A stretch of 64,000 nucleotides of DNA from Dictyostelium discoideum (lineage: Eukaryota). Location of the stretch: positions 2,944,001 through 3,008,000 of the forward strand of contig CM000150.2 of the NCBI GenBank assembly GCA_000004695.1, in the 5' to 3' direction. The notes beneath the pieces were generated by a model. That model was given only the letters and a program-made list of their open reading frames with translations. It did not search any database and had not been told where the DNA came from. Shown piece by piece: positions 1-57,252 of the stretch. The translations under genes and the position numbers were made by a program. Every line of letters starts with the position of its first letter. Position 1 is the stretch's first letter.

Positions 1-48
1 GAATAATATAATTAAAATTATAATAAAAAGGGTTTTAATTAATGTATA

Positions 49-83
<35 letters not shown>

Positions 84-146
84 ATTTATTTCTTTCTATT
101 TATTTATTTCTTTTTTTAATAAATGTTTTATTAAAACTAAAATTGA

Positions 147-177
<31 letters not shown>

Positions 178-303
178 ATTTGGATCAAATTGAATATTTC
201 CAGGTTTTAACCCAATTTTGTGAAAGTCTTGGAAGAAAAAAAAAAAAATATAAAAAAAAAAAAAAAATAATAATTTAAAAAAAAAAAAAACTAATTTTAG
301 AAT

Positions 304-1241
304 TTATTTTTTAGTCAAATTTACAGAGGGTCCCTTATTATCGATTGGTTGATTATCAATTGGAATTACAGAAGTGTTTGGATAATTGTAATAAGGTTGA
401 TTAGACATTTGTTGTTGTTGTTGTTGTTGTGGTTGTTGTTGTGGTGGTGGTAATGGTTGACCATTACCTAATTGTTGGCCTTGACCAGGATATAAATATT
501 GTTGTTGTTGTTGTTGTTGTTGTTGTGGATTAGTACCATTATTATTAGGTTGTGTAGAATAATAATAATTCATTGGAATATAATGAGAAGGTTGTTGAGT
601 TTGATTTGGACCATATGGGTCAGGATGTGGAACTGGTTGTTGAATATTTGCGCTATTTGGAATTGTCAATTCACACCAAATCTTTTGTCTAGTTCTATTC
701 TTTCTATTTCTAAAATCAACATATTTTAATGTCCAACCAATTCCATGTTCATTTGTATATTCAGTATGACATTTTTGGACTGCGTATGATAAATTTTTTA
801 AATACTAAATAAAAATTATTAATTAATAAATTATTTATTTATTTATTTATTTAATTATATATTTAAACCTCTTACCTTTGATTTAATAGTTGCCAAAGCA
901 ATTAAAATATAAATAAAAGAAATACCTAAAATAATTATACCAATATACCAATAAATTGGAGTGAAATCTGAATTTTTATGTCTTTTACTTTCACCAACAC
1001 CAAACATGATTGCTCCTACAACTACTGAAGGAATAAATGATACAATTTGACCAATATAGGTATATTTTGAAACGTTTTCTAAATATTTTATAGTTTTATG
1101 ATATTTTTCATTTGTTACATATGGTACTAGCTCAATTGGCATATCTCTTTGAAATCTTCTTTTCAAATATCCAATCCTTTTTGATTTTATTATAACTTGA
1201 TATGGTGATGATGTTGGATAAATAAATTTTTGTGGTTGCAT
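304..1241 (-). CDS. Hypothetical two-pass membrane protein with a Q/P/N-rich C-terminal tail. Two exons, join(1241..876, 804..304), about 288 aa.
   Basis: Exon 1 runs from the ATG at 1241 (MQPQKF...ATIKSK) and ends in phase 0 at a GTAAGA donor (plus-strand cttacc, 871-876). A 71-nt AT-rich intron ends at TTTAG (plus ctaaat, 805-810). Exon 2 (YLKNLSYAVQKCHTEYTNEHGIGWTLKYVDFRNRKNRTRQKIWCELTIPNS...) continues the frame into the 304..669 ORF. The M of that ORF is actually an internal TTG Leu. Two hydrophobic helices are present (VVGAIMFGVG and IYWYIGIIILGISFIYILIALATI), and the tail is Q/P-rich. Confidence 0.6.
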
Positions 1242-2560
1242 TTTATTATTATTTTATTTATTTATTTATTTTTATTTTTCTTATTTCTTTCTTTTTTTTT
1301 TTTTTTTTCTTTTATACAAGTTTTTTTTTTTTTTTTTTTTTTTTTTTTCTTTTATATATAAAGAGTTATTTATTAAAAAAAAAAAAAAAAAAGATAATAA
1401 TAAAAATAATAAATAAACTTTATATGGAGTATGTGAGTGTTAAAGAGTGATTATATAATTTTTTTACTTTATTTTTTTTTTTTTTTTCTATCTTTTTTTT
1501 CTATCTCTTTTTTTCTATTTTTTTTTTTTTTTTTTTTTTTTTATTATTTATATATATAGTTTTGAATAGTTAAAAAAAAAGATAATATGATGTATTTGGA
1601 TAATCATAAAATATTTATATATAATTAAATTTTGAAAAATTTTTTATAAAGTTTAATAAAAATAAAATAAATTAAATTAAATTAAAATTATGTGTGAGTG
1701 AGTGTGGGTGGGGTTAACTTAAGGGTGGTGTAATTTATTGGTTTATTATAATATGTGCACATATGTATTATTAATGAGTATTTGAAAAATTGTGCCTTTT
1801 AAATTTCTTATATTCATATAGGATGATGTGTAATATATTAAAATATATTATTTTTATTATTACTATTTTTTTTTTTTTTTTAAACTATTAGTGCATTTGT
1901 TTTTTTTTTTTTTTTTTTTTTTTTATTTAATTTTATTTTTTTTAATTTTTTTTTTGTATTTTTTTTTTTGCCAGATAGGTTTGCAAAAAAAAACAAAATT
2001 TCAAGAAAAACTTTTTTTTTATTTTTTGACATTTTAATTTTTTTTTTTTTTTATTTATTTTTATTTTTTTTTTTATCTTTATCAATATTTTTGGATGTTT
2101 TTTTTCCATATTTTCGAAATAAAGACTCTCGAATTTAGCATCAAAAAAAAAAAAAAAAAAAAAAAAAAATCAATGCAAAATCAAAATCTTAAATCTTCAA
2201 CCATATCATCATTACCTTCATCCAACTTTGAATTTTGGTTTCTTTGGTAATTTTGTAGTTGTTTTTGATTTTTTAGTTGGTTTTTTTTCTTGTTCTTCAT
2301 TGTATAATTCATTTGTTTTTTTGATTAAAAAAATTTATAATAAAATAAAAAAAAAAAAAAAAAAAAGTAATAAATATTTAATTTAAAATTTTAATTCTAA
2401 AATAAATAAAAAAAAAAACAATAAAATAAATTAATAAAATAAGAAATTAATAAAATTTAAATAAAAAAACAGTTATAAAAAATGAATGATAAATAATTGA
2501 ATTATAAAAATAATATTTTTGACTAAAAAAAAAAACTCAAATATAATTTTTAAATTTAAT

Positions 2561-3922
2561 TTATTTTTTATTTGAATTAACTTTAATTAAATAATTTTTT
2601 AAAACTAATAATAATTGATCAATTTCTTGTTTCGTAATTGTTAAAGGTGGACAAAAACGAATTACATCATCACCAGCATTAATGATTAAAATTTTTTGAG
2701 ATTTAGCATATGAAACCAAATCACTTACATTGTGATCCAATTGAATACCAACAAATAGACCACCAACTGTTCTAATTTCTAAAATTGAATTTGGGAATTG
2801 ATCTTTTAATTTCTTTAAACCATCAGTTAAATATTTACCTTTTTCTTGAACCTCTTTTAAGAAGGATGGTTGTGAAATACGTTCAAAAACATATTTACCA
2901 ACTTCACAAACCAATGGACCACCACCAAAGGTTGTACCATGATCACCTGGTTTAATTTCAGAGGCTACTTTATCGCTGACTAAAACTGCACCAATTGGTA
3001 AACCACCAGCCAAAGGTTTTGCCAATGTCATTATGTCAGGTTTACACTTTTCAGTATCGAATCTGGTATGAGCCCACAATTGACCTGTTCTACCAATACC
3101 ACATTGAACCTCATCGACAATTAACAAACAGTCATTCTCTTTACAAAGTTTATAAAGTTGTTGCATGAATTCCACGGTGGCAGCTTCGAGACCACCTTCA
3201 CCTTGAACCGGTTCAATGATAACGGCACAGGTTTTACTCTTTGACATTAACTTTTTTACACTTTCAATATCGTTATACTCTGCAAAGTGCACACCTGGAA
3301 CCAAGGGACCATAGATTTCTCTATACTTGGATTTGTGTGTGCAACTAAGTGAGCCCATGGAACGACCAGAGAAACCATGTGAAAATGCTATGATTTCGTG
3401 TTTGTCAACTCCACCCTTGGCAATACCAATCTTTTTTGCAAATTTCAATGCTGCTTCATTTGCTTCAGTACCAGAATTTGCAAAGAAAACCTTATCGAAT
3501 ATTGGTGTACTTGCAATCATTGATTGTGCTAATTCAATCGCTGGTTGATTATAGTAGAGATTTGAAAGATGAGTTAACTTTTTCGATTGATTTGCTACAA
3601 CTTCACTCCAACCATCATTACTATGACCTAATGCATTCACTGCTATACCTGCACCAAAATCTAAATATTTATCACCTTTCATATCATATAACCAACTATC
3701 CTTACCATGAGTGAATACAATATCACTAACACGTCCATAGGTATTCATTATAACATTATCATGTAATTTAATATAATCTGATGTACCATCTTTATTATCT
3801 CTATCTAATTTAACATTTGTAATACCTTCTTTAAAAATTGGTTTACTTGAATAATTTATTTGATAAATTGATTTATTAAAACAATTTTTAATTTTATTAA
3901 TTTTATTTAATTTATTAAACAT
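2561..3922 (-). CDS. argD: Acetylornithine aminotransferase (class III PLP-dependent aminotransferase), probably mitochondrial. Single exon, 453 aa.
   Basis: Uninterrupted ORF with class III aminotransferase hallmarks: FANSGTEANEAALKFAKK, the DEVQCGIGRTGQLWA PLP-lysine region, and TLAKPLAGGLPIGAV. The N-terminus is basic and presequence-like. Overall similarity matches ArgD/acetylornithine transaminases. Confidence 0.85.
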   Translation of the reverse strand: MFNKLNKINKIKNCFNKSIYQINYSSKPIFKEGITNVKLDRDNKDGTSDYIKLHDNVIMNTYGRVSDIVFTHGKDSWLYDMKGDKYLDFGAGIAVNALGHSNDGWSEVVANQSKKLTHLSNLYYNQPAIELAQSMIASTPIFDKVFFANSGTEANEAALKFAKKIGIAKGGVDKHEIIAFSHGFSGRSMGSLSCTHKSKYREIYGPLVPGVHFAEYNDIESVKKLMSKSKTCAVIIEPVQGEGGLEAATVEFMQQLYKLCKENDCLLIVDEVQCGIGRTGQLWAHTRFDTEKCKPDIMTLAKPLAGGLPIGAVLVSDKVASEIKPGDHGTTFGGGPLVCEVGKYVFERISQPSFLKEVQEKGKYLTDGLKKLKDQFPNSILEIRTVGGLFVGIQLDHNVSDLVSYAKSQKILIINAGDDVIRFCPPLTITKQEIDQLLLVLKNYLIKVNSNKK

Positions 3923-4284: not shown

Positions 4285-6264
4285 TTAAATATCAATTGAA
4301 TCTAATTCAATTTCCATTTTATTATTATTATCATTATTATTGTTATTGGTAATTATTGTATTATCAGGTTGTGATAAATTTTTACTATTAAAATCATCAC
4401 CATAATTTTTTCTTGTACTATTATTATTATTACAAACACCACTATTACTACTACTACTACTACTTTTTATACCAGATGTATCACCACCACCACCACGAGT
4501 TGATGATGAAACAGTTGTGATTGATATTTTACTTTTAATTTTAGTAACAAAGAATGATTCAGTCCAAGCGTTTCTAGCAATTTCAGAAGTACCAAAAATT
4601 CCAAAAAATAAAATTCCAAAGAATCTAATTAAAAAGTAAAACATAAAGTAAGAATTAAAATTTGGACCAACTGTATAACATTCATCTAATGGATTTTCAC
4701 TAGTTAATAAACATAAAATATAATCTTCAACACCTTTTTTATAAAAATCATATTTTGATTCAGAATCAAAATAAAATACAAATAAGTAAATTAAAGATGC
4801 TGAAACTGTAACTACTAATACAAATGGTTTAAGTTCTCTAATTACAACTTTACTATCTTTTAATGATACATTTTTAGATATCTAAAATAAATGAAAAAAA
4901 TTAGTTTGTTAGTTATATATTTTATTATTTTTTTTTTTTATTTTTTTTTTACTTACTTTATAAATTTCAAAAATTACACCACAAATACTTAAAACACCTA
5001 ATAAAAGTGCAATACCACATGGTATCCAAAAGATTGCAACAACATACCATCTATCTCTCATCCAACATTCTAAGAAACCATTTCCACCTTGAAATTTTTT
5101 AGCTGATGCTAAAATTATTAAAGTTACTACAGTGAATGATAAATTACCAATCAAAAAATAACGAAAATTTGGTAATTTAAATTGCTTAATTTTTGAATAT
5201 AAAACAATTCCCATCGTCATTGACCAAAGAACACATAATGTTATACCAATATGAAAGATTGATCCTGTGAATCCACATAGTGAATCAACACGTTGTGTGG
5301 CAACTCTACCTGGTTCTGGACATAACTGTTTTTCAATTCCGACACCATAATTAATAATATCACTTAAATAGATAAACGAGCTTCCAATTGCCATTAATGC
5401 AATGCATACATTGTATTTTGATTTTTTTTTAATTAAGAGCCCAAATGTAATAACATTGAAAAGTGATAACACAAAACTTATTGATGACATTGCTTTTGAC
5501 ATATTAATAACACTATCCATTTGACGTTTTGTGTAATTTGGTATTGGACATGGCAATACACAATTGGTGGGCGTCAAATATGTGTAGCCCCTTTTCTCTG
5601 CATATTGGGGATCTGTGGAATTTTTCAATAGTAATGGGTACGGACATGATTCTAAAAATCCAACATTCTCTTGCACCTTATTCTTTTCATAATTTATTTC
5701 TGTGTCTATACATGGCACCATATACATACCGCCATTGGCAGTGTACCCATATTTAGTTAAATTATAGAAAGTTCCAATTTTTGGGAACAAAAAACTAATA
5801 GAACAGTCAATTTGTATAGCAAGTTGAGGACACCCAATTAACATTCTTTCACAAACTGATTTACACACTCTTTGTGGTAACGATATATTATAACCTGGTG
5901 TTATTTTTGGTGTTGTTTCAATACATGGTGATAATGCTGAATCACACATTCCAAATTCTATAAAATTTAAATCTTTACAAATTCCTTGTGAAAATGTTAA
6001 AGATTGAAACCCTTTTTGTAAAATTGGTAATGTTGAAATTTGTGATAATTTATCAATACCACCACCACCACCACCACCTGGTGTCGTATAAATACTTTCA
6101 CTATTAGATAATCTATTCTTACATAATTCATCACCTATATATGATGTACAAATTGAACTTTCGTCAACAATTCCAAATCCATAATCATTTAAACTATTTT
6201 GACAATTTACTAATATTAATATTAATTTTAAAAATATTAAATAAAATTTAAATTTATTAATCAT
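4285..6264 (-). CDS. Frizzled/smoothened-like (Fsl family) seven-pass receptor with an N-terminal cysteine-rich domain. join(6264..4957, 4881..4285), about 634 aa.
   Basis: Signal peptide (MINKFKFYLIFLKLILILVNC), then a Cys-rich frizzled-type CRD, then 7 predicted TM helices with the ECWMRDRWY motif. Exon 1 ends at ...EIYK|GTAAGT (plus acttac, 4951-4956). A 75-nt intron ends at TTTTAG (plus 4882-4887). Exon 2 (ISKNVSLKDSKVV...) runs in frame into the 4285..4644 ORF. Confidence 0.7.
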
Positions 6265-10279: not shown

Positions 10280-10993
10280 ATGTCATTATGTAATAGATCA
10301 AATTTAGAAGCAATTGTTAAAGGTATTCAAACCAATAAAATATTAGAAGTATTTGATAAATATTATCATGATGAAATTGTAATGTATGAAAATGGTGATT
10401 CAACAAATCGTGTTGGTAAAGCTGCAAATCGTATAGCTGAAGAATCTTTTGTAAATAATTCAATTATTCATGAAGCAAGATTAATAAAGTTAATCGCTGA
10501 TGGTGACAATACAGCATATGAAATGTTCATGGATTTCACAAATAGTGGACACCGTATCAAAGAAAATCAATGGGCATTCCAACATTGGTCAAATGGTTTA
10601 GTCATTAAAGAAGAGTTTGTCAAAATTAAAACACCACCAACACCAGAACCAACAAATAATATAAAATCAAATTTAGAAGCAATTATTGAAGGTACTCGAG
10701 ATAATAGAATATTAGAAGTATTCGATAAATATTATCATCCAGATGTAATTATGTATGAAAAAGGTGATCCAACTAATCGTGTTGGTAAAGCTGCTAATCG
10801 TAAAGCTAAAGAATCTTTTGTAAAAAAAGGAAGAATCAATGAAGCAAAAGTATTACAATTAATAATTGATGGTAATGATACAGCATATCAAATGTATATT
10901 GATTTTACATATTGCGGAAATCGTATTCAAAAGACTCAATGGGCTGTTCAACAATGGTCAAATGGTTTAGTTATCAAGGAAGAGTTTTATTAA
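10280..10993 (+). CDS. Protein with two NTF2-like/SnoaL-like domains in tandem. Copy 1 of a five-gene tandem array and the most divergent copy. 237 aa.
   Basis: Two internal repeats of about 115 aa with the pattern NLEA.I.G....ILEVFDKYYH.DV.MYE.GD.TNRVGK.ANR.AE..F...........IDG..TAY.MY.DFT..G.RI...QWA.Q.WSNGL.IKEEF. This matches SnoaL/NTF2-like folds (DDVV.H...G, and a C-terminal W..NGLI.E.F). The two domains are joined by a KTPPTPEPTNN linker. Confidence 0.7.
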   Translation: MSLCNRSNLEAIVKGIQTNKILEVFDKYYHDEIVMYENGDSTNRVGKAANRIAEESFVNNSIIHEARLIKLIADGDNTAYEMFMDFTNSGHRIKENQWAFQHWSNGLVIKEEFVKIKTPPTPEPTNNIKSNLEAIIEGTRDNRILEVFDKYYHPDVIMYEKGDPTNRVGKAANRKAKESFVKKGRINEAKVLQLIIDGNDTAYQMYIDFTYCGNRIQKTQWAVQQWSNGLVIKEEFY

Positions 10994-11283
10994 ACATTTT
11001 TTTAAAAAATGTTCACAACCCTAAAAATAAAGAATATACATATTTTTTATCAACTTATTTAAATATATTTTTAATTATTAATTTCATTGATTTTATATTT
11101 ATGATTTAATTATTTATCATTCATTTTTTGTAATTCTTTTTTATTCTGAGTAAGAACAAGAGGAATATATTTTATATAAAAGAGATTTAAAAAAAAAAAA
11201 AAAAAAATAAAACAAAAAAAAATTTTTTTATAAAAAAATCTAATAAAAATTAAAAAAAAGAATTTTATTTTTATATTTAAAGA

Positions 11284-12203
11284 ATGCCCAAAACTTCAAA
11301 TTGGTCTCCAGCTGAAGATAATTATATTAAAAGCGAATTATTAAAAAAACCTTCTTTGGTTGCCGACGATATTCTCAATAATTTAAATATTAATTTCCAA
11401 CAAAAAAGAACCAAAACTGCGTTAACCCAAAGGATAAAGAAAATTTCATCAGATTTAAAAAGTCACACAATCACCGTTCAAGTCCCTTCTGCATCTACTG
11501 CACAGACAATACCAACAATAACACCACCACAACCACAATTACCAAACCCAAATGACAATGAGGAAGAATATTCAGATCCATCAGAATCGGAGTCAGATGA
11601 AGATTCAAAATCCAACTCTAGCCTCAAAAGAAAGTCACCACTAAAGAAACAAAAACTACATGATTTGAGTAAAGCTTACCAAGGTAAACTATTATTATTA
11701 TTATTATTATTTTTAATTAATTAATTAAATTCTCTCTTTTTTTATTTATAAACAAAACTATAGAACCAACTGAACATCTTCATACTCCATTGGAATTCTT
11801 CGGCACTCAGAGATTAAAATTAAATGATCCCATCATTTTACCATTAGAAGATGGATCGTTTAAACTTGTTTTTGGTTATCCACCTTTTGATATTGAAATA
11901 ATTGAGGTTAAATATTTGGGTGATGGTAGAATTGGAATAAGATACCATGTCTTATTACCATCAAGAGAAGATCTAGAAACAATAGTTGGTTATGATTATT
12001 CATCCAGATGGTATATTAAATATGATTGTCTACCACTCAAAACCACAAGCTTTCACTTTCTTCATCACTCTGCCTCTACAAAAGAACAAGAAAAATATCA
12101 AAGTTGTAAAATCGATATTGAAAAAGATATAAAATATTTTTCAATAACAGTTACTCCAAAAGCAGTTGAGAAAATAGATTTAGATGAATGGATTGACTCC
12201 TAA
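11284..12203 (+). CDS. Hypothetical protein. Two exons, join(11284..11683, 11764..12203), about 280 aa.
   Basis: Exon 1 (MPKTSNWSPAEDNYIKSE...SKAYQ) ends in phase 1 at G|GTAAAC (11684). An 80-nt intron ends at CTATAG (11763). Exon 2 restores the frame: (E)PTEHLHTPLEFFGTQRLKLNDPIILPLEDGSFKLVFGYPPFDIEI...DEWIDS*. The N-terminus has a Myb/SANT-like W..ED pattern, and the middle is an acidic, Ser-rich stretch. Confidence 0.55.
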
Positions 12204-12742
12204 AATAAATATAAATTAATTTAAAAAAAAAATAAAAAAAATAAAAAAAATAAAAAAAAACAATTTTTTTTTTTTTTTTGCCAAATTTTTTTTTTTTTTT
12301 TTTTTTTATTTTTTTTTCATTTCCAGCATCTCTATTTTTAAATTTTTCTTTAATGTCAAATTTGAATGTTTGAAAAATAATACTAAATAAAAAACAAAAA
12401 AAAATATTCAAGATTTAGTTCATTTATTTTATTTGATTAAAAAAAAAAAATAGAAATTAAATCTTTCAGTTTATTCTTAGTTTTTTTTTTTTTTTTTTTT
12501 TTAAATCTCTTGTGGTCCCATAAAATTTTTTTTAAAAACTTTTTTTAAGGCCTTCAGGTGTTTTTCATTTTTTTTCATTTTTTTTTTTCAAATCAAAATT
12601 TATTTATAAACACAAGAATGGTTGAGAACGACAACCAGATAACAATAAAAACTATAAAATGTAAAAAAAAATTTATTCATTCATTAAATTATCAAATTAA
12701 AAATACATATAAAGCAAACAAATAAATAAACAAATAAATAAA

Positions 12743-13453
12743 ATGTCATCAAATAATAGATCAAATTTAGAAGCAGTTATTAAAGGTATTCAAACCAATA
12801 AAATATTAGAAGTATTTGATAAATATTATCATGATGAAGTTGTAATGTACGAAAATGGTGATTCAACTAATCGTGTTGGTAAATCTGCAAATCGTAAAGC
12901 TGAAGAATCTTTTGTAAATAATGCAACTATCCATGAAGCAAAATTATTAAAAACAATCGTAGATGGTGATAATACAGCATATGAAATGTATATGGATTTC
13001 ACATATGGTGAACATCGTATTAAAAAGAATCAATGGGCATTCCAACAATGGTCAAATGGTTTAATTATTAAAGAGGAGTTTGTTGAAATTAAAACACCAA
13101 CACCAGAACCATCAACTAATATCAAATCAAATTTAGAATCAATTATTAAAGGTATTCAAGATAATAAAATATTAGAAGTATTTGATAAATTCTATCATCA
13201 AGATGTAATTATGTATGAAAAAGGTGATTCGACTAATCGTGTTGGTAAAGCTGCAAATCGTAAAGCTGAAGAATCCTTTGTTAATAATGCAACAATTCAT
13301 GAAGCAAAATTATTAAAATTACTCGTTGATGGTAATAATACAGCATATGAAATGTATATGGATTTCACATATGGCGAACATCGTATCAAAAAGAATCAAT
13401 GGGCCGTTCAACAATGGTCAAATGATTTAGTTATCAAAGAAGAATTTTATTAA
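12743..13453 (+). CDS. Two-domain NTF2-like/SnoaL-like protein, array copy 2. 236 aa.
   Basis: More than 95% identical to copies 3-5, with the same internal two-domain structure. The conserved 5' spacer carries a TCCCATAAAAT motif and a CTATAAAATG box. Confidence 0.75.
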   Translation: MSSNNRSNLEAVIKGIQTNKILEVFDKYYHDEVVMYENGDSTNRVGKSANRKAEESFVNNATIHEAKLLKTIVDGDNTAYEMYMDFTYGEHRIKKNQWAFQQWSNGLIIKEEFVEIKTPTPEPSTNIKSNLESIIKGIQDNKILEVFDKFYHQDVIMYEKGDSTNRVGKAANRKAEESFVNNATIHEAKLLKLLVDGNNTAYEMYMDFTYGEHRIKKNQWAVQQWSNDLVIKEEFY

Positions 13454-14177
13454 ATAAACTTTTTATTTTTTAAAAATGTACAATAAATTTTAAATAAAAC
13501 AAAGAATTTACATATTTTTTAATCTATTAATTTTTTTTTTATTTATTTAATAATTCATTTTTTGTTGATAATATATAGAGTGTATTTTTTTTTTTTTTTT
13601 CCAGATTTTTAATCATTTTCCAATATTAAATTTCACAAAATCTTTAAAAATAATTTTAAAAAATTTCATCTTCTTCAAATTTTGCATTAAAAATTTCTTA
13701 TTTTCATTTATTTATTTATTGTTTTTTAAAGATACACTTTTCTTAAAAATAAAAAAACCCACAAAAATGAATGGTAAGAAATTAAATTCTAAAACAGAAT
13801 AACATTCATTTTTTATATTTTATTTCATTTTATGTATTTTTGAGTGCTCTATTTTTATTTCTACCAAATTCATATCAAAAAAAAAAAAAATTTGATACTT
13901 CTTTTAAAATAAAAAAAAAAAAAGATAGTATTTTGTTTGTCCCATAAAATTTTGAAAATTTTTTTTTTTGTTCTGGTGTTTTAAAATTTTTCTTTTTTTT
14001 TTTTCAGATTAAAATTTATTAACAAGAATACCAAACTCAAGAATACTTGAGAATGATAGCGAGTTGTTTTACATAATGATAAAAACTATAAAATGTAAAA
14101 TAATAAAAAAAAATAATCATTCATTAAAAAATAATCAACAAAAATAAATATAAAATTTAAATATAAAAACAAATATA

Positions 14178-14222
<45 letters not shown>

Positions 14223-14223
14223 A

Positions 14224-14937
14224 ATGTCATCAAATAATAAATTAATTTTAGAAGCAGTTATTAAAGGTATTCAAACCAATAAAATATTAGAAGTATTTGA
14301 TAAATATTATCATGATGAAATTGTAATGTATGAAAATGGTGATTCAACTAATCGTGTGGGTAAATCTGCAAATCGTAAAGCTGAAGAATCTTTTGTAAAT
14401 AATGCAACAATCCATGAAGCAAAATTATTAAAAACAATCATTGATGGTGATAATACAGCATACGAAATGTATATGGATTTCACATATGGCGAACATCGTA
14501 TCAAAAAGAATCAATGGGCATTCCAACAATGGTCAAATGGTTTAATTATTAAAGAAGAATTCGTTGAAATTAAAACACCACCAACACCAGAACCATCAAC
14601 TAACATCAAATCAAATTTAGAATCAATTATTAAAGGTATTCAAGATAATAAAATATTAGAAGTATTCGATAAATTTTACCATCAAGATGTAATTATGTAT
14701 GAAAAAGGTGATTCGACTAATCGTGTTGGTAAATCTGCAAATCGTAAAGCTGAAGAATCCTTTGTTAATAATGCAATAATTCATGAAGCAAAATTATTAA
14801 AATTACTCGTTGATGGTAATAATACAGCATATGAAATGTATATGGATTTCACATATGGCGAACATCGTATCAAAAAGAATCAATGGGCCGTTCAACAATG
14901 GTCAAATGATTTAGTTATCAAAGAAGAATTTTATTAA
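14224..14937 (+). CDS. Two-domain NTF2-like/SnoaL-like protein, array copy 3. 237 aa.
   Basis: Near-identical paralog. About 1.5 kb periodicity with its neighbours. Confidence 0.75.
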   Translation: MSSNNKLILEAVIKGIQTNKILEVFDKYYHDEIVMYENGDSTNRVGKSANRKAEESFVNNATIHEAKLLKTIIDGDNTAYEMYMDFTYGEHRIKKNQWAFQQWSNGLIIKEEFVEIKTPPTPEPSTNIKSNLESIIKGIQDNKILEVFDKFYHQDVIMYEKGDSTNRVGKSANRKAEESFVNNAIIHEAKLLKLLVDGNNTAYEMYMDFTYGEHRIKKNQWAVQQWSNDLVIKEEFY

Positions 14938-15477
14938 ATAAAATTTCTCTTTTTTAAAAATGTACAATAAATTTTAAATAAAACAAAGAATATACATATT
15001 TTTTAATCTATTAATTGGTTTTTTATTTTATTTCTGATATTTTTTTAATTTTAATTTTTATTTTTTTTAGATTTTTAATCATTTTCTAAAATAATATTTC
15101 ATCTTTATAAAAATTAATCTGAACTTCTCCAAATTTTATTACTGCACAATAAATTTCTTATTTTCATTTATTTATTTTTTTGTTTTTATAAAAAAAAGAT
15201 AAATGAGTAAAATAATTTAAATAATTAAATTAAATAAATGAATTAAATAAATTTTTTTTTTTTTTTTTTCATAATTTTAATTTTCAAATCAAAAAATAAA
15301 AAGGTAAATTTATTAAGTCTTGAATAATTTTATATGTTTTTTTTTTAAAATTATATTTATTCAAACACTCAAATTTTACATTAAAAAAAACAAATAAAAA
15401 ATATCCAATTTAATAAATTTTTATTACATTTAAAAATAAAAAATAAATTGTAATATAATTAAATTTTAAAACTAAAA

Positions 15478-15512
<35 letters not shown>

Positions 15513-15763
15513 TGAAAATGTTTTTTTTAATTTCCATCCCATAAATTTTTTTTAAAAAAACTTGTTTTGTTCTGGTGTTTTCATTTTTTTTTTTTTTCTG
15601 AATAAAATTTATTAATAGGCCCAGAATACTTGAGAATGGTAGTAAGTTATTTAAGATAACAATAAAAACTATAAAATGTAAAAAAAAAAAAAAATAATAA
15701 TCATTCATTAAAATAAAATCAACGATAATCAAAAATAAATAAATAAATAAATTAATAAATAAA

Positions 15764-16474
15764 ATGTCATCAAATAACAAATTAAATTTAGAAGCAGTTA
15801 TTAAAGGTATTCAAACCAATAAAATATTAGAAGTATTTGATAAATATTATCATGATGAAGTTGTAATGTACGAAAATGGTGATTCAACTAATCGTGTTGG
15901 TAAATCTGCAAATCGTAAAGCTGAAGAATCCTTTGTAAATAATGCAACAATTCATGAAGCAAAATTATTAAAAACAATCGTAGATGGTGATAATACAGCA
16001 TATGAAATGTATATGGATTTCACATATGGCGAACATCGTATTAAAAAGAGTCAATGGGCATTCCAACAATGGTCAAATGGTTTAATTATTAAAGAGGAGT
16101 TTGTTGAAATTAAAACACCAACACCAGAACCATCAACTAACATCAAATCAAATTTAGAATCAATTATTAAAGGTATTCAAGATAATAAAATATTAGAAGT
16201 ATTTGATAAATATTACCATCAAGATATAATTATGTATGAAAAAGGTGATTCGACTAATCGTGTTGGTAAATCTGCAAATCGTAAAGCTGAAGAATCTTTT
16301 GTTAATAATGCAACAATTCATGAAGCAAAACTATTAAAAGTACTTGTAGATGGTAATAATACAGCATATGAAATGTATATGGATTTCACATATGGCGAAC
16401 ATCGTATCAAAAAGAATCAATGGGCCGTTCAACAATGGTCAAATGATTTAGTTATCAAAGAAGAATTTTATTAA
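15764..16474 (+). CDS. Two-domain NTF2-like/SnoaL-like protein, array copy 4. 236 aa.
   Basis: Near-identical paralog. Confidence 0.75.
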   Translation: MSSNNKLNLEAVIKGIQTNKILEVFDKYYHDEVVMYENGDSTNRVGKSANRKAEESFVNNATIHEAKLLKTIVDGDNTAYEMYMDFTYGEHRIKKSQWAFQQWSNGLIIKEEFVEIKTPTPEPSTNIKSNLESIIKGIQDNKILEVFDKYYHQDIIMYEKGDSTNRVGKSANRKAEESFVNNATIHEAKLLKVLVDGNNTAYEMYMDFTYGEHRIKKNQWAVQQWSNDLVIKEEFY

Positions 16475-17357
16475 ATAAAATTTTTATTTTTTAAAAATGT
16501 ACAATAAAATTTAAATAAAAGAATTTTACATACTTGTTTATCTATTAATTTTTTTTTAAAACTATGTTGTATTTTTTTATTTATTTAAATATTCATTTTT
16601 TGTTGATAACATATAGAGTGTATTTTTTTTTTAAAGATTTTTAATCATTTTCCAATATTAAATTTCATATTGATAAAATTGTTCTGAACTTCTTCAAAAT
16701 TTCAATTATATATTTCTTATTTTATTTTATTGTTTTTTAAAAAAAAGATAAATGAGAGGGCAGAATAAAATAATTAAAAAGTTATTACCTTTTTAATTTT
16801 AGAACCAAAAAAAAAAAATCTTTATTTTTTTATTTTTTTTTTTTTTTTTACATAAAAAAAAAAAATATCAATTTAATCAAATAAAATTTTTTTTTCCTTG
16901 CTCGTTGTTTTTAAAAATAAAAAAAAAATTACAAAAATGATTAAATACTAAAACAGAAAAATATTCATTTATTGTTATAATTTATTTCATTTTGTGTATT
17001 TTTTGAGTGCTCTATTTTTATCAAAAACACCTCCAAAAAAAAAAAAATATTTTTCGTGTCCCATAAAATTTTTTTAAAATTTTTTTTTGTTCTGGTGTTT
17101 TAATATTTTTCTTTTTTTTTTTTCGGATTAAAATTTATTAACAAGAATACCAAACCCAAGAATACTTGAGAATGATAGCGAGTTGTTTTACATAATGATA
17201 AAAACTATAAAATGTAAAATAAAAAATAAAAATAATCATTCATTAAAAAAATATCAACAATAACCAAAAATAAATATAAAATTCTTTCTTTTTTTTTAAA
17301 AACAAATAAATTAAAAATAAAAAAATAAAAAAACAAATAAATAAATTAATAAATAAA

Positions 17358-18071
17358 ATGTCATCAAATAATAAATTAAATTTAGAAGCAGTTATTAAAG
17401 GTATTCAAACCAATAAAATATTAGAAGTATTTGATAAATATTATCATGATGAAGTTGTAATGTACGAAAATGGTGATTCAACTAATCGTGTTGGTAAATC
17501 TGCAAATCGTAAAGCTGAAGAATCTTTTGTAAATAATGCAACAATCCATGAAGCAAAATTATTAAAAACAATCGTAGATGGTGATAATACAGCATACGAA
17601 ATGTATATGGATTTCACATATGGCGAACATCGTATCAAAAAGAATCAATGGGCATTCCAACAATGGTCAAATGGTTTAATTATTAAAGAAGAATTCGTTG
17701 AAATTAAAACACCACCAACACCAGAACCATCAACTAACATCAAATCAAATTTAGAATCAATTATTAAAGGTATTCAAGATAATAAAATATTAGAAGTATT
17801 TGATAAATTCTATCATCAAGATGTAATTATGTATGAAAAAGGTGATTCGACTAATCGTGTTGGTAAATCTGCAAATCGTAAAGCTGAAGAATCTTTTGTT
17901 AATAATGCAACTATTCATGAAGCAAAACTATTAAAAGTACTTGTAGATGGTAATAATACAGCATATGAAATGTATATGGATTTCACATATGGCGAACATC
18001 GTATCAAAAAGAATCAATGGGCCGTTCAACAATGGTCAAATGATTTAGTTATCAAAGAAGAATTTTATTAA
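17358..18071 (+). CDS. Two-domain NTF2-like/SnoaL-like protein, array copy 5. 237 aa.
   Basis: Near-identical paralog. Last unit of the array before the retrotransposon insertion. Confidence 0.75.
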   Translation: MSSNNKLNLEAVIKGIQTNKILEVFDKYYHDEVVMYENGDSTNRVGKSANRKAEESFVNNATIHEAKLLKTIVDGDNTAYEMYMDFTYGEHRIKKNQWAFQQWSNGLIIKEEFVEIKTPPTPEPSTNIKSNLESIIKGIQDNKILEVFDKFYHQDVIMYEKGDSTNRVGKSANRKAEESFVNNATIHEAKLLKVLVDGNNTAYEMYMDFTYGEHRIKKNQWAVQQWSNDLVIKEEFY

Positions 18072-18329
18072 ATACAATAAAATTTTTATTTTTTAAAAAT
18101 GTACAATAAAATTTAAATTTAACTTTTTTTTTTTTAAATATTGATTAATCATAGTTTATCCATTTGAGGAAATAAGCAATATTTAATAGTTTTATTTATG
18201 AATTTTAATTTTAAAAAGAAATTTAACACACATATTTTTTTTTTTTTTTGTTTTTATTTTTAAAAATTGGTCAGTGTTAGGCAATATTTAATATGGTTTA
18301 TATTAATCAAAGATCAGATGCAGACCGGA

Positions 18330-18332
18330 ACT

Positions 18333-18344
<12 letters not shown>
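18330..18344. repeat. Target-site duplication (3' flank copy) of the TRE3 insertion. Its partner lies at 23038-23052.
   Basis: An identical 15-mer, cagaccggaactgtt, lies directly outside the poly(A) end and directly outside the 5' end of the element. On the tRNA strand it reads aacagttccggtctg, which resembles a downstream external B-box. Confidence 0.7.
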
Positions 18345-18374
<30 letters not shown>

Positions 18375-18492
18375 TAAAAGCGGTGTATTGTTATATTTTA
18401 TTACATTTTTAAATTTTTAGATTTTTAAATTTTTAAATTTTTATATTGTTATATGTTGATATTTTTGGTTATATTATGATTACTACTACTTG

Positions 18493-18519
<27 letters not shown>

Positions 18520-18523
<4 letters not shown>

Positions 18524-21500
18524 TCTAATGGAATTGGGTTTGGAGTGTTCGGGTTATGCCATGATGTGTTGAAGTTGATTATTAATTGGTCTCTGTTATT
18601 TAATTTGTATATTGTTTCATTCCTTTCGATCTTCTTTATTAAAATGAATTTCTCTATTTTAATTAAGTTGGTTAGTTCTTTTTCAATTAATGTTGGATCA
18701 AATGAGGGTGGAGATTTAGATTCGTCTTGATTGAATAGTTTGTGACAAATTATTCTCCATAGTTGATGTATAATTATGCCGATTAAATTTGGGTAGATTC
18801 TTTCTTTTTTATTTGTTTTGCTAATATCTAGTGAATTGAGATCCCAATTTCTGATCTTGAAGAATGAGAGATTGTTGAATGTTGAAATTATTATGTTTTC
18901 TATTTCTTTTACTTGCATACAGTCTATAAAAAGGTGAGTGTATGGGTCACGGATTATATTGTTACAGATTTTGCATGGTACGTTACGTTCATAGTTGATT
19001 CCAGGAAGTGACCTTGAGAAAAATCTGAATAGTGTATTTCTACCTTTTTGATGTGATATGTGGTTGATATGTTGGAAGATGGATGGTATGTTGATGTTAT
19101 TTATTGAAATTAGATTTTTTTGTCCATCTGTTTTTCTTATTGATTTGTATTTGTGAGTGATTAACATGTTATAGATTTCTTTAAGTTGAAGTGGCTTTTT
19201 GTTTTGACCTTTGATACAATCAGGTAGTGATTTTAGTTTATTGTGTTGTGGTGAAAAGTTGTTTCTAAAATCTTTCCATCTGTCTACCATCTCTCTTAAT
19301 CCAATTGATATATATTTGCTGTTGCTGATTTGTTCCATATACCATTCTTGTAGTATGTTGCATGCTTTTATCTTGATAATGTGTAATAATCTATTCATGT
19401 TCCAAACTTTGAATGCTATTTGTCTGATACCTAAGTCCCACATCTTAATTCCACCTTCTTTCCAATCACCATATGCTCTATCCATTGTCATTAATGTTCT
19501 ATATTTATGTTCTTCTGTGTATGTATTTTTAATTGCGGAGAAGAGGAACCATTTAATGATATTGTTTAGTTCAGTAATGTGTGATTCATTTAGTGAGTCT
19601 AGATATTGATGGTAGGATAATCTCGATAGCGCATATGTTTTGACAATTGTCATCTTTGCTCTTATTGTAGTTGCTTGACTTTTCCAATTGTTTAAGCTAT
19701 CTTTGATTGAGTTGATGATTGATGTGATTTTTGAATTGAGGCCCACTTTCGTGAAATTGAGACCCAAGTATCTTTCTGGAGCTTCACTAATCTTAAATGG
19801 GAGGTTTGGTGGTATATTACCAATGCATATCATAACAGTTTTCTCTTGATTAAGTTTTGAAGATGTACCTAGACAGTAGTTGTTGATTTTATCCAATACT
19901 AATTTTAATTCTTCTGCTGAGTTGTTGAAAGTTGACATATCATCTGCGAATGCTGTTAGCTTGATTCTTTTCTGGTCTGATCATTTAAATCCTTTAATTT
20001 CGTTTTCTTTAAGTATATCAATTAGTAGTGCTTCCATTACAAGTGCAAATATTGTTGGTGATAATGGATCTCCTTGTTTTGTGCCTCTGTTAACTGTAAT
20101 GTGTCCCACCAGGAAGTCATTTATCTTGATCTTATTCGTTGTTTCTTTTAATAGATTCATTATTAATTCTACTATCGTTTTTGGTATGCCAATGTGGCTC
20201 AATGTTCTTCTGATACTTTTGTGGCTAATTGAGTCGAAAGCTTTGTTGAAATCGAAGAATGTGATTAACGTAGTACTGTTTCTTGATTTGTTTGCTCTTT
20301 CGATTACCTCCTTCATTATTTGAATATTATCTTGGATGTAACGATTTGGAACAAACCCATTTTGAAATTTGTTTATTATTTTCTTTGTAACTGCAAGTAA
20401 ACGGTTGTTGATGATCTTACTTAATAGTTTGTAGTCCGTATTGAGTAGAGTAATTGGTCTTCTATTAGCTATTTGTAGTTCATCTCCTTTCTTGAATAGT
20501 GTTGTGATAAATCCTTCTTTGAATTTTGGATTGATTTCTTTTTGATTAGTTAATGTATCATTAAATACTTTTGCTAAGATTGTTGAAAGTGATGCAGAGT
20601 GGTTTCTATATAATGCAGCATTGATTCCATCTAGTCCTGGAGATTTGTGTGGATTAGAATTTTTAATTGCATTATTGACTTCTTTTGGTGTGATTGCACT
20701 ATCTAATGATAGTCTGGAAATGTATTGTTTGTCCACTATCCATTTATCCAATAGTTCCTTGTGTTTACTTTCATTATCTGGTTTTTCATCGTATTGTTCT
20801 TGATAGAATTCTAAGAAGCATTTGGCTATTTCAACTTTTTCTGATACAATTGTTCCATCTTTGTTTTTAATTTGGAATATGGATCTGTCCTTTTTCCTTT
20901 TCTTTAGTTTACTTGTTAGATATCTACTTGGAGTTTCTTGGTTTAAGTGAAGTTTCAATTTGGTTTCCCATTGTTTATTTGCTTCTTCTTCTTTCAATAA
21001 CTCTTCCATTTCGTCTTCTAGTTGCTTTCTTTGACCAGGGTATAAATCTTCTCTTTCAATTAATCTATGTAATCTACTCTTCTTTTTGTTTTTTTCCTTT
21101 TTTATCAAGTTCTGTTGCTTTTTGAGATGGTGCCTGATTGTATAATTCTTAAAGTGGATCCAGTCATCTAGTGTGTTGATGTATTGTTTGTTGTTTTCTA
21201 TGATTTGCGAGATTTCTTCATGAATTGTTGGATCAGCCAATGTTTCTTTGCATAATGTCCACGGGAGTTTTTCAATTTTGATGTTGTTGATGTTGATATC
21301 GTTTGCGCTATTGTTATTCATTTTTAAATCTATTGAAATAGGTGTGTGGTCAGATTTGTTGTAAATATCTTCATGCACCCTTAGCGGGTTTGAACCCACC
21401 ATTGTTGGTTTACAATAAATTCTGTCCAATCTGCTATTAGATCTTGAAAAAGTTGCGATATTGTTGTTTGCACCTATATCTTTCAGGTTGCTTTCTTCAA

Positions 21501-21972
21501 TTATACTTCTGATACCAATACCATAGTGTGAATTGTTGTTGTGGTCTGCATTAAAGTCACCTGCAATGATGTCATGTTTGATTTTTTGATCTTTAATGAG
21601 ATTCTTTGCTGCTATAATGAATGCATTTCTTCTAGGTATTGATGCTGGGGCATAAATTAAAAGGATGTTGATGTTGATATACGAATTGAACTTAACTGAT
21701 AATATTCTACCTTCTGTATCTTTGAAATTTACTGTTAGATAGCCAGTGCTTAAATTTCTATTCTCTATTGATACACCAGTGCCTTTACCGTTTCCATGAT
21801 CTATCCTTTCATAGTTGAACATTGATTTATAATGATTGAATGTTGAACCGTTTGTTTCTGTAAGTAATGTGATTTGGGGACCTATTCTCTTGATCGTTTC
21901 TTCAGCTTTTTTATTTGAGAGAGGGCTTGAACTACCTCTGCAATTCCATAATAAAATTTTTAATTTTTCCAT
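18520..21972 (-). CDS. Retrotransposon ORF2 (apurinic-type endonuclease plus reverse transcriptase plus zinc-finger-like motif), interrupted by a single in-frame TGA at 19978-19980.
   Basis: APE domain: MEKLKILLWNCRGSS...LLTETNG. RT motifs: PITLLNTDYKLLSKII, FDFNKAFDSISH, QGDPLSPTIFALVMEAL, and the FADD box, which lies just after the stop (...GFK*SDQKRIKLTAFADDMSTF). The two track ORFs, 19981..21972 and 18520..19938, are in the same frame and are separated only by this one TGA. Confidence 0.75.
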
Positions 21973-22179
21973 CCTCTTGATAGGGTTGGGTTACCATTTG
22001 GTGGTTGACCACCACTTGGTTTTGTTTGTGTAGTAATATTGTTTGTTGTATTTGAGTTGTTTAATTTATTTGTGATGATTGTTTTGTTGTTGTTGTTGAG
22101 ATTTTTGTCGTTGTTATTATTGCTGTTGTTATTATTATTGTTGTTGTTGTTGGAGTTATTGGAGTTATTGGAGTTATTG

Positions 22180-22259
<80 letters not shown>

Positions 22260-22907
22260 TTGTATTATATTTGTATTATTGATAGCTTGATTGGTTGTTG
22301 TTTGTTTTTTGTTTTTCTTTTTAGCTTCCTCCCTATCTTCTCTACTAATAGATTCACAGAAGTATACTTTAATTTGATTGTTGTTGTTTTTATATGACTG
22401 AATTTGATTATTGATTATATTTGTATTTGTTGATTTGTTGAATAGTATTATTGCTGAATATCTGTGCACATCATTCATAATTTTAACGTTGCATTCATCA
22501 ACTTCCACTGCTTCTACTCCCATGTTTGTTTGTACATCTTCTTTTGTTATTGCTTTTGTTATATTTTTTGTGAAGGTATAGAAGTGGAGGTAGTGGTGAT
22601 TAGGAAAGTATGGGATGAATCTTTGAATTCTATATATTCCATCCTCATCCTTTATTTGAAATGTGCAAAATGAATCGTGTAGATGTTTCAAATTTTCTTT
22701 TAGAATTCTACCCAACACTGTTATACCTTTTGATTTTCTAATTATTGTTTTATCTTTGAGGAGTGTATTGTCAATGAATTTGAGAGTATTACTATTTAAT
22801 TCTGCTGTATTTGGGTAGTATAGTCTGATTTTATATGTTGAGTTATTTAGTAATTCTTCATTGAATACAAATTTGTTACTGATGAGATTGAAAAAGTTAT
22901 TGTTCAT
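21960..22907 (-). CDS. Retrotransposon ORF1 protein with a long poly-Asn tract. 315 aa.
   Basis: Sits at the 5' end of the element and overlaps the ORF2 start by 13 nt. The (AAT)n run at about 22100-22260 encodes poly-N. Confidence 0.6.
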
Positions 22908-22938
22908 TTTTTTTTTTTTTTTTTTTTTTTATTTTTTT

Positions 22939-22982
<44 letters not shown>

Positions 22983-23070
22983 TATTTTATTACGTGATTG
23001 TTAATTATTTGTTGATAGTTTGTTGATTGATTGTGCTCAGACCGGAACTGTTGACATATGGTTCCTAAGT

Positions 23071-23076
23071 AAAAAA
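23071..23076 (-). terminator. Pol III oligo-T terminator of the tRNA-Ser gene.
   Basis: TTTTTT on the tRNA strand, 3 nt after the discriminator base. Confidence 0.6.
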
Positions 23077-23079
23077 GAT

Positions 23080-23161
23080 CGACATCGGCAGGGTTCGAAC
23101 CTGCGCCTCCTAGGAGATTTGATTTCAAGTCAAACGCGTTAGACCACTTCGCTACGATGTC
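23080..23161 (-). tRNA. tRNA-Ser (anticodon UGA).
   Basis: The minus-strand sequence GACATCGTAGCGAAGTGGTCTAACGCGTTTGACTTGAAATCAAATCTCCTAGGAGGCGCAGGTTCGAACCCTGCCGATGTCG folds as follows. A 7-bp acceptor stem (GACATCG/CGATGTC) plus discriminator G. A 3-bp D-stem with an AGTGGTCTAA loop. Anticodon stem TTTGA/TCAAA with loop CTTGAAA, giving anticodon TGA. A long variable arm, typical of type II Ser tRNAs. T-arm GCAGG-TTCGAAC-CCTGC. A T6 run follows. Confidence 0.85.
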
Positions 23162-23349
23162 TTTTGATGATATTTTGAGTTGATAGCAAAAAAAATTAGT
23201 AAAATTTCAAAAATGTATTTGAACACTAAAAAAGGTTCAGAATTGAAAATTAAGATAAAAAAGAAAGAAAATATTAAATTCTGAAATGATTATAATTTTA
23301 AAATATTTCCTTTTATTGTTAAATCCATTATTATAATAATAAATGTTTA

Positions 23350-57189: not shown

Positions 57190-57252
57190 ACAAGCTCGCC
57201 TTACAGCAATTACTCTGATTTTTCTCCAAAAAAAAAACCTTCGCGAGTTGTC
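57190..57252 (+). ncRNA. Candidate Dictyostelium Class I small ncRNA gene.
   Basis: A 5' stem CAAGCTCGC pairs with a 3' stem GCGAGTTG (3 + 5 bp with one bulge). The conserved Class I 11-nt motif CCTTACAGCAA (57199-57209) follows the 5' stem directly. A T-rich run follows the 3' stem. A DUSE-like element lies about 60 bp upstream. Ends are approximate. Confidence 0.6.

Follow-up and report, generated by a model that had tools for sequence, protein, structure and literature searches.

The insertion next to the tRNA-Ser(UGA) gene at this Dictyostelium discoideum locus raises the questions of which family of mobile elements it belongs to, where it begins and ends, and whether it landed in an external B box of the tRNA gene. 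We analysed the whole stretch of 64 kb (hereafter the window) and used sister-species loci and one Logan contig (L005) for comparison. With a probability of roughly 0.88, the insertion is a full-length (or within ~30 bp of full length) tRNA-gene-targeted non-LTR retrotransposon of the D. discoideum TRE3 group, most probably TRE3-C. It is an ordinary TRE3-type copy, which is already known in the form of gene models in the reference genome. The coordinates of all features are summarized in Table 1.

Table 1. Features of the element and of the adjacent tRNA gene (positions in the window)
Feature	Position	Strand	Basis
Target-site duplication, distal copy	18321..18335		exact 15-mer match
Poly(A) tail, 36 nt	18336..18371	-	
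3′ UTR, 148 nt; internal A29 run directly after the stop codon; ends ...ACACCGCTTTTAGGTA	18372..18519	-	
ORF2, 1,150 codons	18520..21972	-	translation; Pfam
CX2CX9HX4C knuckle, ORF2 aa 1000-1018	18919-18975	-	translation
FADD box in ORF2	19939-19950	-	translation
In-frame TGA (ORF2 codon 664), eleven codons upstream of the FADD box	19981..19983	-	translation
Reverse transcriptase	~19756-20484	-	Pfam RVT_1 1.3e-27, aa 497-656, continuing past the stop codon
AP-endonuclease domain, ORF2 aa 8-194	~21391-21951	-	Pfam Exo_endo_phos 4.5e-9
ORF1, 315 aa, intact	21960..22907	-	open reading frame
5′ UTR, 130 nt: 57 nt CA-rich, A37 run (22944-22980), A23 run abutting the ORF1 ATG	22908..23037	-	
Target-site duplication, tRNA-proximal copy, +28 to +42 from the tRNA end	23038..23052		exact 15-mer match
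T6 run at +4 to +9 from the tRNA end, between the tRNA gene and the insertion point	23071..23076	-	direct sequence reading
tRNA-Ser(UGA), 82 nt	23080..23161	-	ARAGORN; Rfam RF00005 64.8 bits
Internal B box GGGTTCGAACC of tRNA-Ser(UGA)	23091-23101	-	B-box coordinate scan

ARAGORN and Rfam agree on the adjoining tRNA-Ser(UGA) gene, which had been named in the earlier note on this DNA. We take the T6 run behind this gene to be its expected RNA polymerase III terminator. The insertion occupies the intergenic spacer and leaves both the tRNA gene and the terminator uninterrupted; 42 nt separate the 3′ end of the tRNA gene from the first base of the element. Both sides of the insertion carry the same 15-mer, which reads CAGACCGGAACTGTT on the plus strand and AACAGTTCCGGTCTG on the tRNA strand. 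This sequence occurs exactly twice in the 64-kb window, it cannot be extended on either side, and the chance of this G+C-rich 15-mer at a given position is about 4e-11. The clean 15-bp duplication reported in the earlier note is thus real and its right copy was correctly placed, but the left copy, which had been put at 18330-18344, lies nine bases further to the left. Similarly, the poly(A) tail had been counted as 28 nt and proved to be longer, since the T run on the plus strand comprises 38 nt (18334-18371), of which two T's belong to the duplication. Single-base resolution had been claimed for both termini. This holds for the 5′ junction (23037/23038), which is exact, but at the 3′ junction 2 nt could belong to either side, since the AA of the target (sense strand) merges with the poly(A) tail. 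Between the duplications, the element extends over 4,702 bp on the minus strand (18336-23037). Beyond its tail, a SnoaL/NTF2-like gene ends at 18071, at a distance of 264 bp. The window contains a Dicty Class I RNA as well.

The architecture of the element is that of the TRE type. ORF1 lies at the tRNA-proximal 5′ end, where the earlier note had located it, and is followed by an ORF2 encoding AP endonuclease, reverse transcriptase and zinc knuckle in this order; the untranslated regions are short, a poly(A) tail is present and there are no LTRs. As in other TRE3 elements, ORF2 is read in the -1 frame relative to ORF1 (start offset 2 mod 3), and the two frames overlap by 13 nt; a frameshift has been reported for TRE3-A and TRE5-A. 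ORF1 did not yield any Pfam match, and no integrase domain was matched in the ORFs of the element. An (AAT)25 microsatellite in ORF1 (22182-22256) encodes poly-Asn, and the ORF1 protein shares 44% identity with ORF1 of a second D. discoideum lineage. Elsewhere in the 64-kb window there were no further copies of the element, and the element itself has neither LTRs nor internal repeats. Because of the APE-RT non-LTR architecture with its poly(A) tail, DNA transposons and LTR elements are excluded. In all, a chance repeat, an LTR element, a DNA transposon and TRE5 were considered and each of them was rejected.

The position of the element points in the same direction. TRE3 elements share the orientation of the tRNA gene and lie 40-150 bp downstream of it (PMC5911963), and for Dd_TRE3-C a distance range of 14-305 bp is given (PMC5006619 Table 1). 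TRE5 elements, in contrast, sit ~50 bp upstream and are oriented opposite to the tRNA gene (PMC5911963, PMC5006619). Our element lies downstream of tRNA-Ser(UGA) in the orientation of this gene, and its distance of 42 bp falls inside both published windows, yet it is short when compared with the typical value of about 100 bp. Upstream of the tRNA gene (23162-23349), where a TRE5 element would be expected, no TRE-like sequence was detected. Taken together, the order of ORF1 and ORF2, the downstream site, the duplication and the poly(A) tail match the published definition of TRE3, and the TRE3-type assignment of the earlier note is supported.

Which TRE3 subfamily is present was judged from length, copy profile and elimination; the likeness to Dd_TRE3-C is one of length and features rather than of DNA identity. 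The published consensus lengths are 4,734 bp for TRE3-C, 5,229 bp for TRE3-A, 5,279 bp for TRE3-B, 5,647 bp for TRE5-A and 5,971 bp for TRE5-B, and TRE3-D is listed without any full-length copies (PMC5006619 Table 1). With its 4,702 bp, our element agrees with TRE3-C, with which it also shares the two ORFs, the APE, RT and zinc knuckle regions of ORF2, the poly(A) tail, the placement downstream of a tRNA gene (within 14-305 bp) and in its orientation, and the membership in a family of low copy number, of which very few copies are intact. The copy studied here differs by a nonsense codon in ORF2. Dd_TRE3-C was reportedly described by Szafranski et al. in 1999, Glöckner et al. in 2001 and Spaller et al. 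in 2016. At the protein level, ORF2 is 99% identical to DDB_G0269266, and its two halves correspond to the annotated AX4 chromosome 1 proteins DDB_G0270886 (663 aa) and DDB_G0269542; our literature search did not reveal any mention of the gene IDs of the element. For other AX4 copies, exact look-ups of P0059, P0001 and the window ORF1 returned no record.

Among the other D. discoideum ORF2 sequences compared, a set that did not include TRE5 ORF2, the nearest cluster is a 1,275-aa 'pol' group (including AAD43057.1), which we take to be TRE3-A or -B. These proteins share only 33% identity with our ORF2, and they are 1,275 aa long versus 1,149 aa here. TRE3-A and TRE3-B resemble our element in element class, domain order, -1 frame of ORF2 and integration downstream of tRNA genes, but their consensus sequences are longer (5,229 and 5,279 bp). 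Outside D. discoideum, relatives with 58-65% ORF2 identity were found in D. citrinum, D. cf. discoideum and D. dimigraforme, where they are located 88, 109 and 66 bp downstream of tRNA-Ile, tRNA-Trp and tRNA-Ser, respectively. In all three cases, the orientation is that of the tRNA gene, duplications of 17, 14 and 16 bp are present and the element ends with the same ...AGGTA(A)n. The complete terminus shared by the relatives in the three species, CACCGC...AGGTA(A)n, was read directly from the sequences; the MAFFT alignment of the 3′ UTRs misplaced the terminal motif. A coincidental neighbour of the tRNA gene from a different family, be it TRE3-A, -B or -D, TRE5 or a DNA transposon like DDT, is very unlikely. 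This idea might draw on the report that TRE3-C groups near TRE5 in trees derived from the RT domain alone (PMC5006619), and on the named families having been compared by length and features. However, the APE-RT architecture with poly(A) tail does not allow for DNA transposons or LTR elements, the length suits TRE3-C only (PMC5006619 Table 1), the downstream placement in the same orientation is opposite to that of TRE5 (PMC5911963), and the three cross-species relatives are placed likewise.

The 5′ UTR of the copy starts with AGCACAATCAATC, and its first 57 nt resembled the 5′ UTRs of the relatives no better than shuffled sequence did. With this homology absent, it is the duplication and the total length that support position 23037 as canonical 5′ terminus. 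The missing alignment and the A37 run, which is unusual within a 5′ UTR, could be explained if the unit were a composite, in which a 5′-truncated element (57 nt plus A37, 22944-23037) had inserted first and a full-length element had then integrated into its poly(A), with the duplication of the second element hidden within the A runs. Repeated hits of TREs on one tRNA gene, which lead to tandems, are on record (PMC5006619, supplement Table S2 note). However, the 57-nt piece does not carry the conserved ...AGGTA terminus, long A-rich stretches also directly precede the ORF1 ATG of the relatives at the sister-species loci L002 and L003 and represent a family trait, and the total of 4,702 bp suits the 4,734-bp consensus as a single element. 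We consider such a composite, including the hidden second duplication, highly improbable and treat the unit as one element.

When we inspected the translation of ORF2, we observed an in-frame stop codon that is absent from the earlier note. According to the sequence, a single T-to-G change, which converts TTA (Leu) to TGA, cuts ORF2 before the catalytic FADD box. All seven other family proteins that span codon 664 carry leucine at this position, and the Logan contig is identical to our copy over 3,652 nt except for a T instead of the G at 19982 (TTA). The shortened product of 663 aa has been annotated in two D. discoideum assemblies. Since the TGA precedes the FADD box, translation of this copy cannot yield a complete reverse transcriptase, and thus it is not autonomous; ORF1 is intact but ORF2 is not. 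Probably, the copy is a non-autonomous remnant of activity in the very recent past. At position 19982, the nonsense allele could be polymorphic, as one sequencing run has leucine in an otherwise identical sequence.

It had also been proposed that the duplicated target resembles an external B box and that the insertion is consistent with TFIIIC guidance. External B boxes are located ~41 bp downstream of 66% of the D. discoideum tRNA genes (PMC3159450), and the candidate core GTTCCGGTC is found close to this distance (+32 to +40), comparable to the genuine external B box at L003 (+30 to +40). Moreover, the target 15-mer forms a G+C-rich island in a spacer of 14.5% G+C, and on direct reading the equivalents of G53, T54, T55, C56 and C61 are kept. 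However, the core has two mismatches to GTTCRANYC, which hit the conserved R and A, and at ≤2 mismatches the window has 0.94 matches per 100 nt per strand. Similarly, AGTTCCGGTCT matches GGTTCGAATCC at 6 of 11 positions, a level that is reached 2.1 times per 100 nt on each strand. Scans for B boxes at ≤2 mismatches (11-mer) and ≤1 mismatch (core) did not return the target site, and the reconstructed empty site (200 nt) did not contain any B-box match. The true external B boxes at L002, L003 and L004, in contrast, match at 9 of 11 positions, and the elements at these loci begin 26-62 nt beyond the box and not within it. This is in line with the literature, in which TRE3 is described as integrating downstream of, rather than into, a B box (PMC5911963); the experimental work on targeting covers in some detail TRE5-A only (PMC5006619). 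Hence, the position fits, but the sequence match is at chance level, and our data do not support an insertion into a B-box-like motif. It appears unlikely that TFIIIC bound to the 15-bp target as to a degenerate external B box and guided the element into this motif. Equally doubtful is that this G+C-rich sequence is a decayed external B box at canonical offset into which TRE3-C landed, rather than 26-62 nt beyond it. If the latter were true, TRE3 site choice would be measured from the internal B box, and insertions could land on remnants of external B boxes and duplicate them. As for TFIIIC itself, its guidance of the insertion is an inference.

For a TRE3-C insertion outside a B box, the following scenario may be suggested. 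Integration would proceed by target-primed reverse transcription, which is standard for endonuclease-bearing non-LTR elements. The ORF2 endonuclease would nick the antisense strand at 5′-...CTGTT^GACAT-3′, the freed TT-3′OH would prime on the poly(A) tail, and a second nick on the opposite strand, 15 bp away, would give rise to the duplication. The site may be chosen by recognizing the Pol III transcription complex that occupies the tRNA gene. Since tRNA-Ser(UGA) is without an external B box, the putative reference point would be the internal B box, whose end lies 53 nt ahead of the element. The empty allele is expected to read ...TATGTCAACAGTTCCGGTCTGCATCTGATC... on the tRNA strand.

Two other tRNA-associated elements of D. 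discoideum may be compared. TRE5-A (DRE) is also an L1-like non-LTR element with an APE-RT-ZF ORF2, and its targeting depends on the tRNA gene or the Pol III complex, but TRE5 elements insert ~50 bp upstream in opposite orientation and carry modular A/B/C untranslated regions, which are absent here (PMC5911963, PMC3159450). Skipper-2 (DGLT-P) also favours the downstream side of tRNA genes, where it lies at 8-23 bp in D. discoideum (PMC5006619), but it is an LTR element (Ty3/gypsy) with integrase and chromodomain, whereas our element has neither LTRs nor a matched integrase.

A TRE is carried by 61% of the D. discoideum tRNA genes (PMC5006619), and TRE3 downstream of tRNA genes is a well-described feature of this organism; the significance of our data is mostly one of annotation. 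The outcomes are corrected coordinates, a probable assignment to TRE3-C and the removal of an unsupported external B-box claim. If position 19982 is polymorphic, this locus would harbour an active TRE3-C copy in some strains. A single base change separates the copy from an intact ORF2, which points to a very young family.

The element located between the two target-site duplications (see table) is a non-LTR retrotransposon of the TRE3 group. Its structure and orientation, the duplication, the tail and the stop codon were directly observed, and its anatomy corresponds to the TRE architecture as published (PMC5006619, PMC5911963). ORF1 did not yield a Pfam match. Its poly-Asn tract is encoded by an (AAT)25 microsatellite (window 22182-22256), and this repeat is a likely cause of length differences among copies. 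Neither a second copy of the element nor a terminal repeat was detected within the 64-kb window. The neighbouring region 10280-18071 carries five tandem paralogous genes (236-237 aa, all on the plus strand), which constitute the "NTF2-like array" of the earlier note. At least three of them contain an internal 369-bp duplication and the last one has hits to SnoaL-like (NTF2-fold) families in Pfam.

Features of the window and of the related loci (window coordinates unless a locus is named)
Feature	Position	Strand	Details
Element between duplications	18336-23037	sense (-)	4,702 bp
Target-site duplication, 15-mer CAGACCGGAACTGTT	18321-18335; 23038-23052		exactly 2 occurrences in 64 kb
5' UTR			130 nt; contains A37 and A23 runs
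ORF1	21960-22907	(-)	315 aa
ORF2	18520-21972	(-)	-1 frame; starts 13 nt ahead of ORF1 stop
ORF2, AP endonuclease			Pfam Exo_endo_phos, 4.5e-9
ORF2, reverse transcriptase			Pfam RVT_1, 1.3e-27
ORF2, further motifs			FADD box; CX2CX9HX4C knuckle
In-frame TGA in ORF2	19981-19983	(-)	codon 664, eleven codons ahead of FADD
3' UTR			148 nt; A29 run at start; ends ...ACACCGCTTTTAGGTA, then poly(A) tail
Poly(A) tail	18336-18371	(-)	36 nt
tRNA-Ser(UGA)	23080-23161	(-)	sole tRNA gene in window; ARAGORN and Rfam agree
Tandem paralogues	10280, 12743, 14224, 15764, 17358	(+)	
Dictyostelium Class I RNA (RF01414)	57194-57250	(+)	Rfam 45.2 bits; gathering score 41.5
L001, D. citrinum			ORF2 identity 65%; tRNA-Ile, 88 bp downstream; 17-bp duplication
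L002, D. cf. discoideum			ORF2 identity 58%; tRNA-Trp, 109 bp downstream; 14-bp duplication
L003, D. dimigraforme			ORF2 identity 60%; tRNA-Ser(AGA), 66 bp downstream; 16-bp duplication
3'-terminus regions compared	window 18372-18400; L001 9440-9510; L002 9395-9445; L003 9430-9485		
Homologous flank repeat	L001 4870-4946 and 9534-9680; L003 9540-9740		

The G+C content of the window is 23.6%, and for the G+C-rich 15-mer we calculated a probability of about 4e-11 at a given place. Thus, the 15-bp duplication flanking the element is real; neither copy can be extended. The right-hand duplicate had been placed correctly at 23038-23052 in the earlier note. Its left-hand duplicate (18330-18344) was 9 nt off, and because of this shift the tail comprises 36 nt (within a 38-nt T run) and not the 28 nt previously counted. 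On the tRNA strand, the reconstructed empty site is predicted to read ...CATATGTCAACAGTTCCGGTCTGCATCTGATCTTTG..., and 3' of the tRNA gene we found ATCTTTTTT, the expected Pol III terminator.

ORF2 shares 99% identity with DDB_G0269266 of D. discoideum AX4. The reference annotation already covers the locus, since DDB_G0270886 and DDB_G0269542 on the 4.92-Mb chromosome correspond to the two halves of ORF2; element and locus are already known. Only one further D. discoideum cluster turned up, the abundant 1,275-aa "pol" group including AAD43057.1 (33% identity). When the length of the element was compared with the published consensus lengths (TRE3-A, 5,229 bp; TRE3-B, 5,279 bp; TRE3-C, 4,734 bp; TRE5-A, 5,647 bp; TRE5-B, 5,971 bp; TRE3-D, partial only, without full-length copy; PMC5006619 Table 1), TRE3-C was the only fit. 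For this family 29 copies (2 intact) are listed at 14-305 bp from tRNA genes (PMC5006619 Table 1). By length and elimination, the element is most probably a TRE3-C copy.

The in-frame TGA of ORF2 had previously been overlooked. All seven other family proteins spanning codon 664 carry leucine there. Two D. discoideum assemblies contain an annotated 663-aa product with the same truncation (EAL72793.1 of AX4, KAM9941256.1), and therefore the stop is not a read error. No complete reverse transcriptase can be made from the window copy, which is defective. Positions 1-3652 of a Logan contig (SRR24091727_1144) are identical to window 18551-22202 except at position 19982, where T instead of G gives TTA (Leu) versus TGA in the window. 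This difference reflects either a strain-specific nonsense allele or the existence of a twin copy. The end of this contig carries Illumina adapter sequence. Apart from the stop, ORF2 differs from DDB_G0269266 in only six residues and, judged by this low divergence, the family of the element is very young.

The element starts 42 nt past the 3' end of tRNA-Ser(UGA), on the same strand and with its 5' end toward the tRNA. According to published descriptions, TRE3 elements occupy sites 40-150 bp downstream of tRNA genes and share their orientation, and TRE5 elements lie about 50 bp upstream and point the opposite way (PMC5911963). The earlier identification as a TRE3-type insertion was right: the element lies downstream of the tRNA gene on the same strand and has TRE architecture. 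In the three sister-species loci all elements are oriented like their own tRNA genes, the 3' terminus CACCGC...AGGTA(A)n is common to them and the window copy (four species), and an A run follows the ORF2 stop in each. At the level of sequence comparison, these common properties confirmed the 3' terminus of the element and the TRE3-type behaviour of its lineage. Between the CACCGC and AGGTA motifs of all three sister-species elements lies a stretch of about 40 nt with a palindrome (AAGGAAAxTCCTT), which is absent from the 3' end of the D. discoideum copy (CACCGCTTTTAGGTA). The 5' terminus (AGCACAATC...) was assigned from the duplication and the total length; over its first 57 nt the element aligned with the relatives no better than shuffled sequence. 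In the window copy, L002 and L003, long A runs or A-rich stretches lie just ahead of the ATG.

The 5' UTR of the L002 element harbours a nested element of about 570 bp (4318-4884) that resembles a small, MITE-like DNA transposon; its terminal inverted repeats read GGACCTTTCTGTGAATAA... and ...TTATTCAGAGAAAGGTCC. The tRNA-gene flanks in D. citrinum and D. dimigraforme have a homologous repeat in common (ATTTAATGTTGATAGAAATAT... and ...TTTTCACTTTTT..AAAA.TGAAAAATG...), which points to a further repeat associated with tRNA genes; the TRE3-like elements would have inserted into this repeat or next to it. A degenerate second lineage is located downstream of tRNA-Phe in D. discoideum GCA_054883475.1 (L004, 8001-10426). 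The N-terminus of its ORF2 shares 53% identity with the window element and 84% with the intact D. cf. discoideum element. This element may be TRE3-D. Its ORF1 is 44% identical to that of the window, and the predicted ORF1 proteins of the two lineages are clearly related.

About 66% of D. discoideum tRNA genes have an external B box about 41 bp downstream, and GTTCRANYC is its conserved core (PMC3159450). The duplicated target (AACAGTTCCGGTCTG) had been proposed to resemble such a box, and this proposal was not supported. The best target match (AGTTCCGGTCT) agrees with GGTTCGAATCC at only 6 of 11 positions, and its core GTTCCGGTC misses both the conserved R and the conserved A. The target has the right offset (+28 to +42 from tRNA-Ser(UGA)). 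Across the window, motif matches of such quality occur 2.1 times (11-mer) and 0.94 times (core) per 100 nt of each strand. We consider a decayed external B box improbable. The target is not among the B-box matches in the window with up to two mismatches (11-mer) or up to one mismatch (core), and the latter were not in excess (109 observed versus 127 expected from shuffles). No B-box match was found within 200 nt of the reconstructed empty site. Since the target resembles the motif only at chance frequency and the empty site lacks a match, tRNA-Ser(UGA) appears to have no external B box. The B box closest to the element is that inside the tRNA gene (internal B box, 23091-23101), whose end is 53 nt away from the element. 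External B boxes (9/11 match) are located between +30 and +48 at L002 (GGTTCAATTCC), L003 and L004, where tRNA-Phe carries a clean copy at +38 to +48 (TGTTCGACTCC). The L002 and L003 elements start 62 and 26 nt past these boxes, respectively.

By analogy with the mechanism of APE-type non-LTR elements, integration would have proceeded via target-primed reverse transcription. The first nick would fall on the antisense strand at 5'-CTGTT^GACAT-3', and the terminal TT of the nicked strand could pair with the poly(A) tail, which leaves the 3' junction ambiguous by 2 nt. A second nick with a 15-bp stagger would follow. Among the TREs, targeting has been examined by experiment in some detail for TRE5-A only (PMC5006619), and it is plausible that the Pol III complex or TFIIIC was recognized when the present site was chosen.
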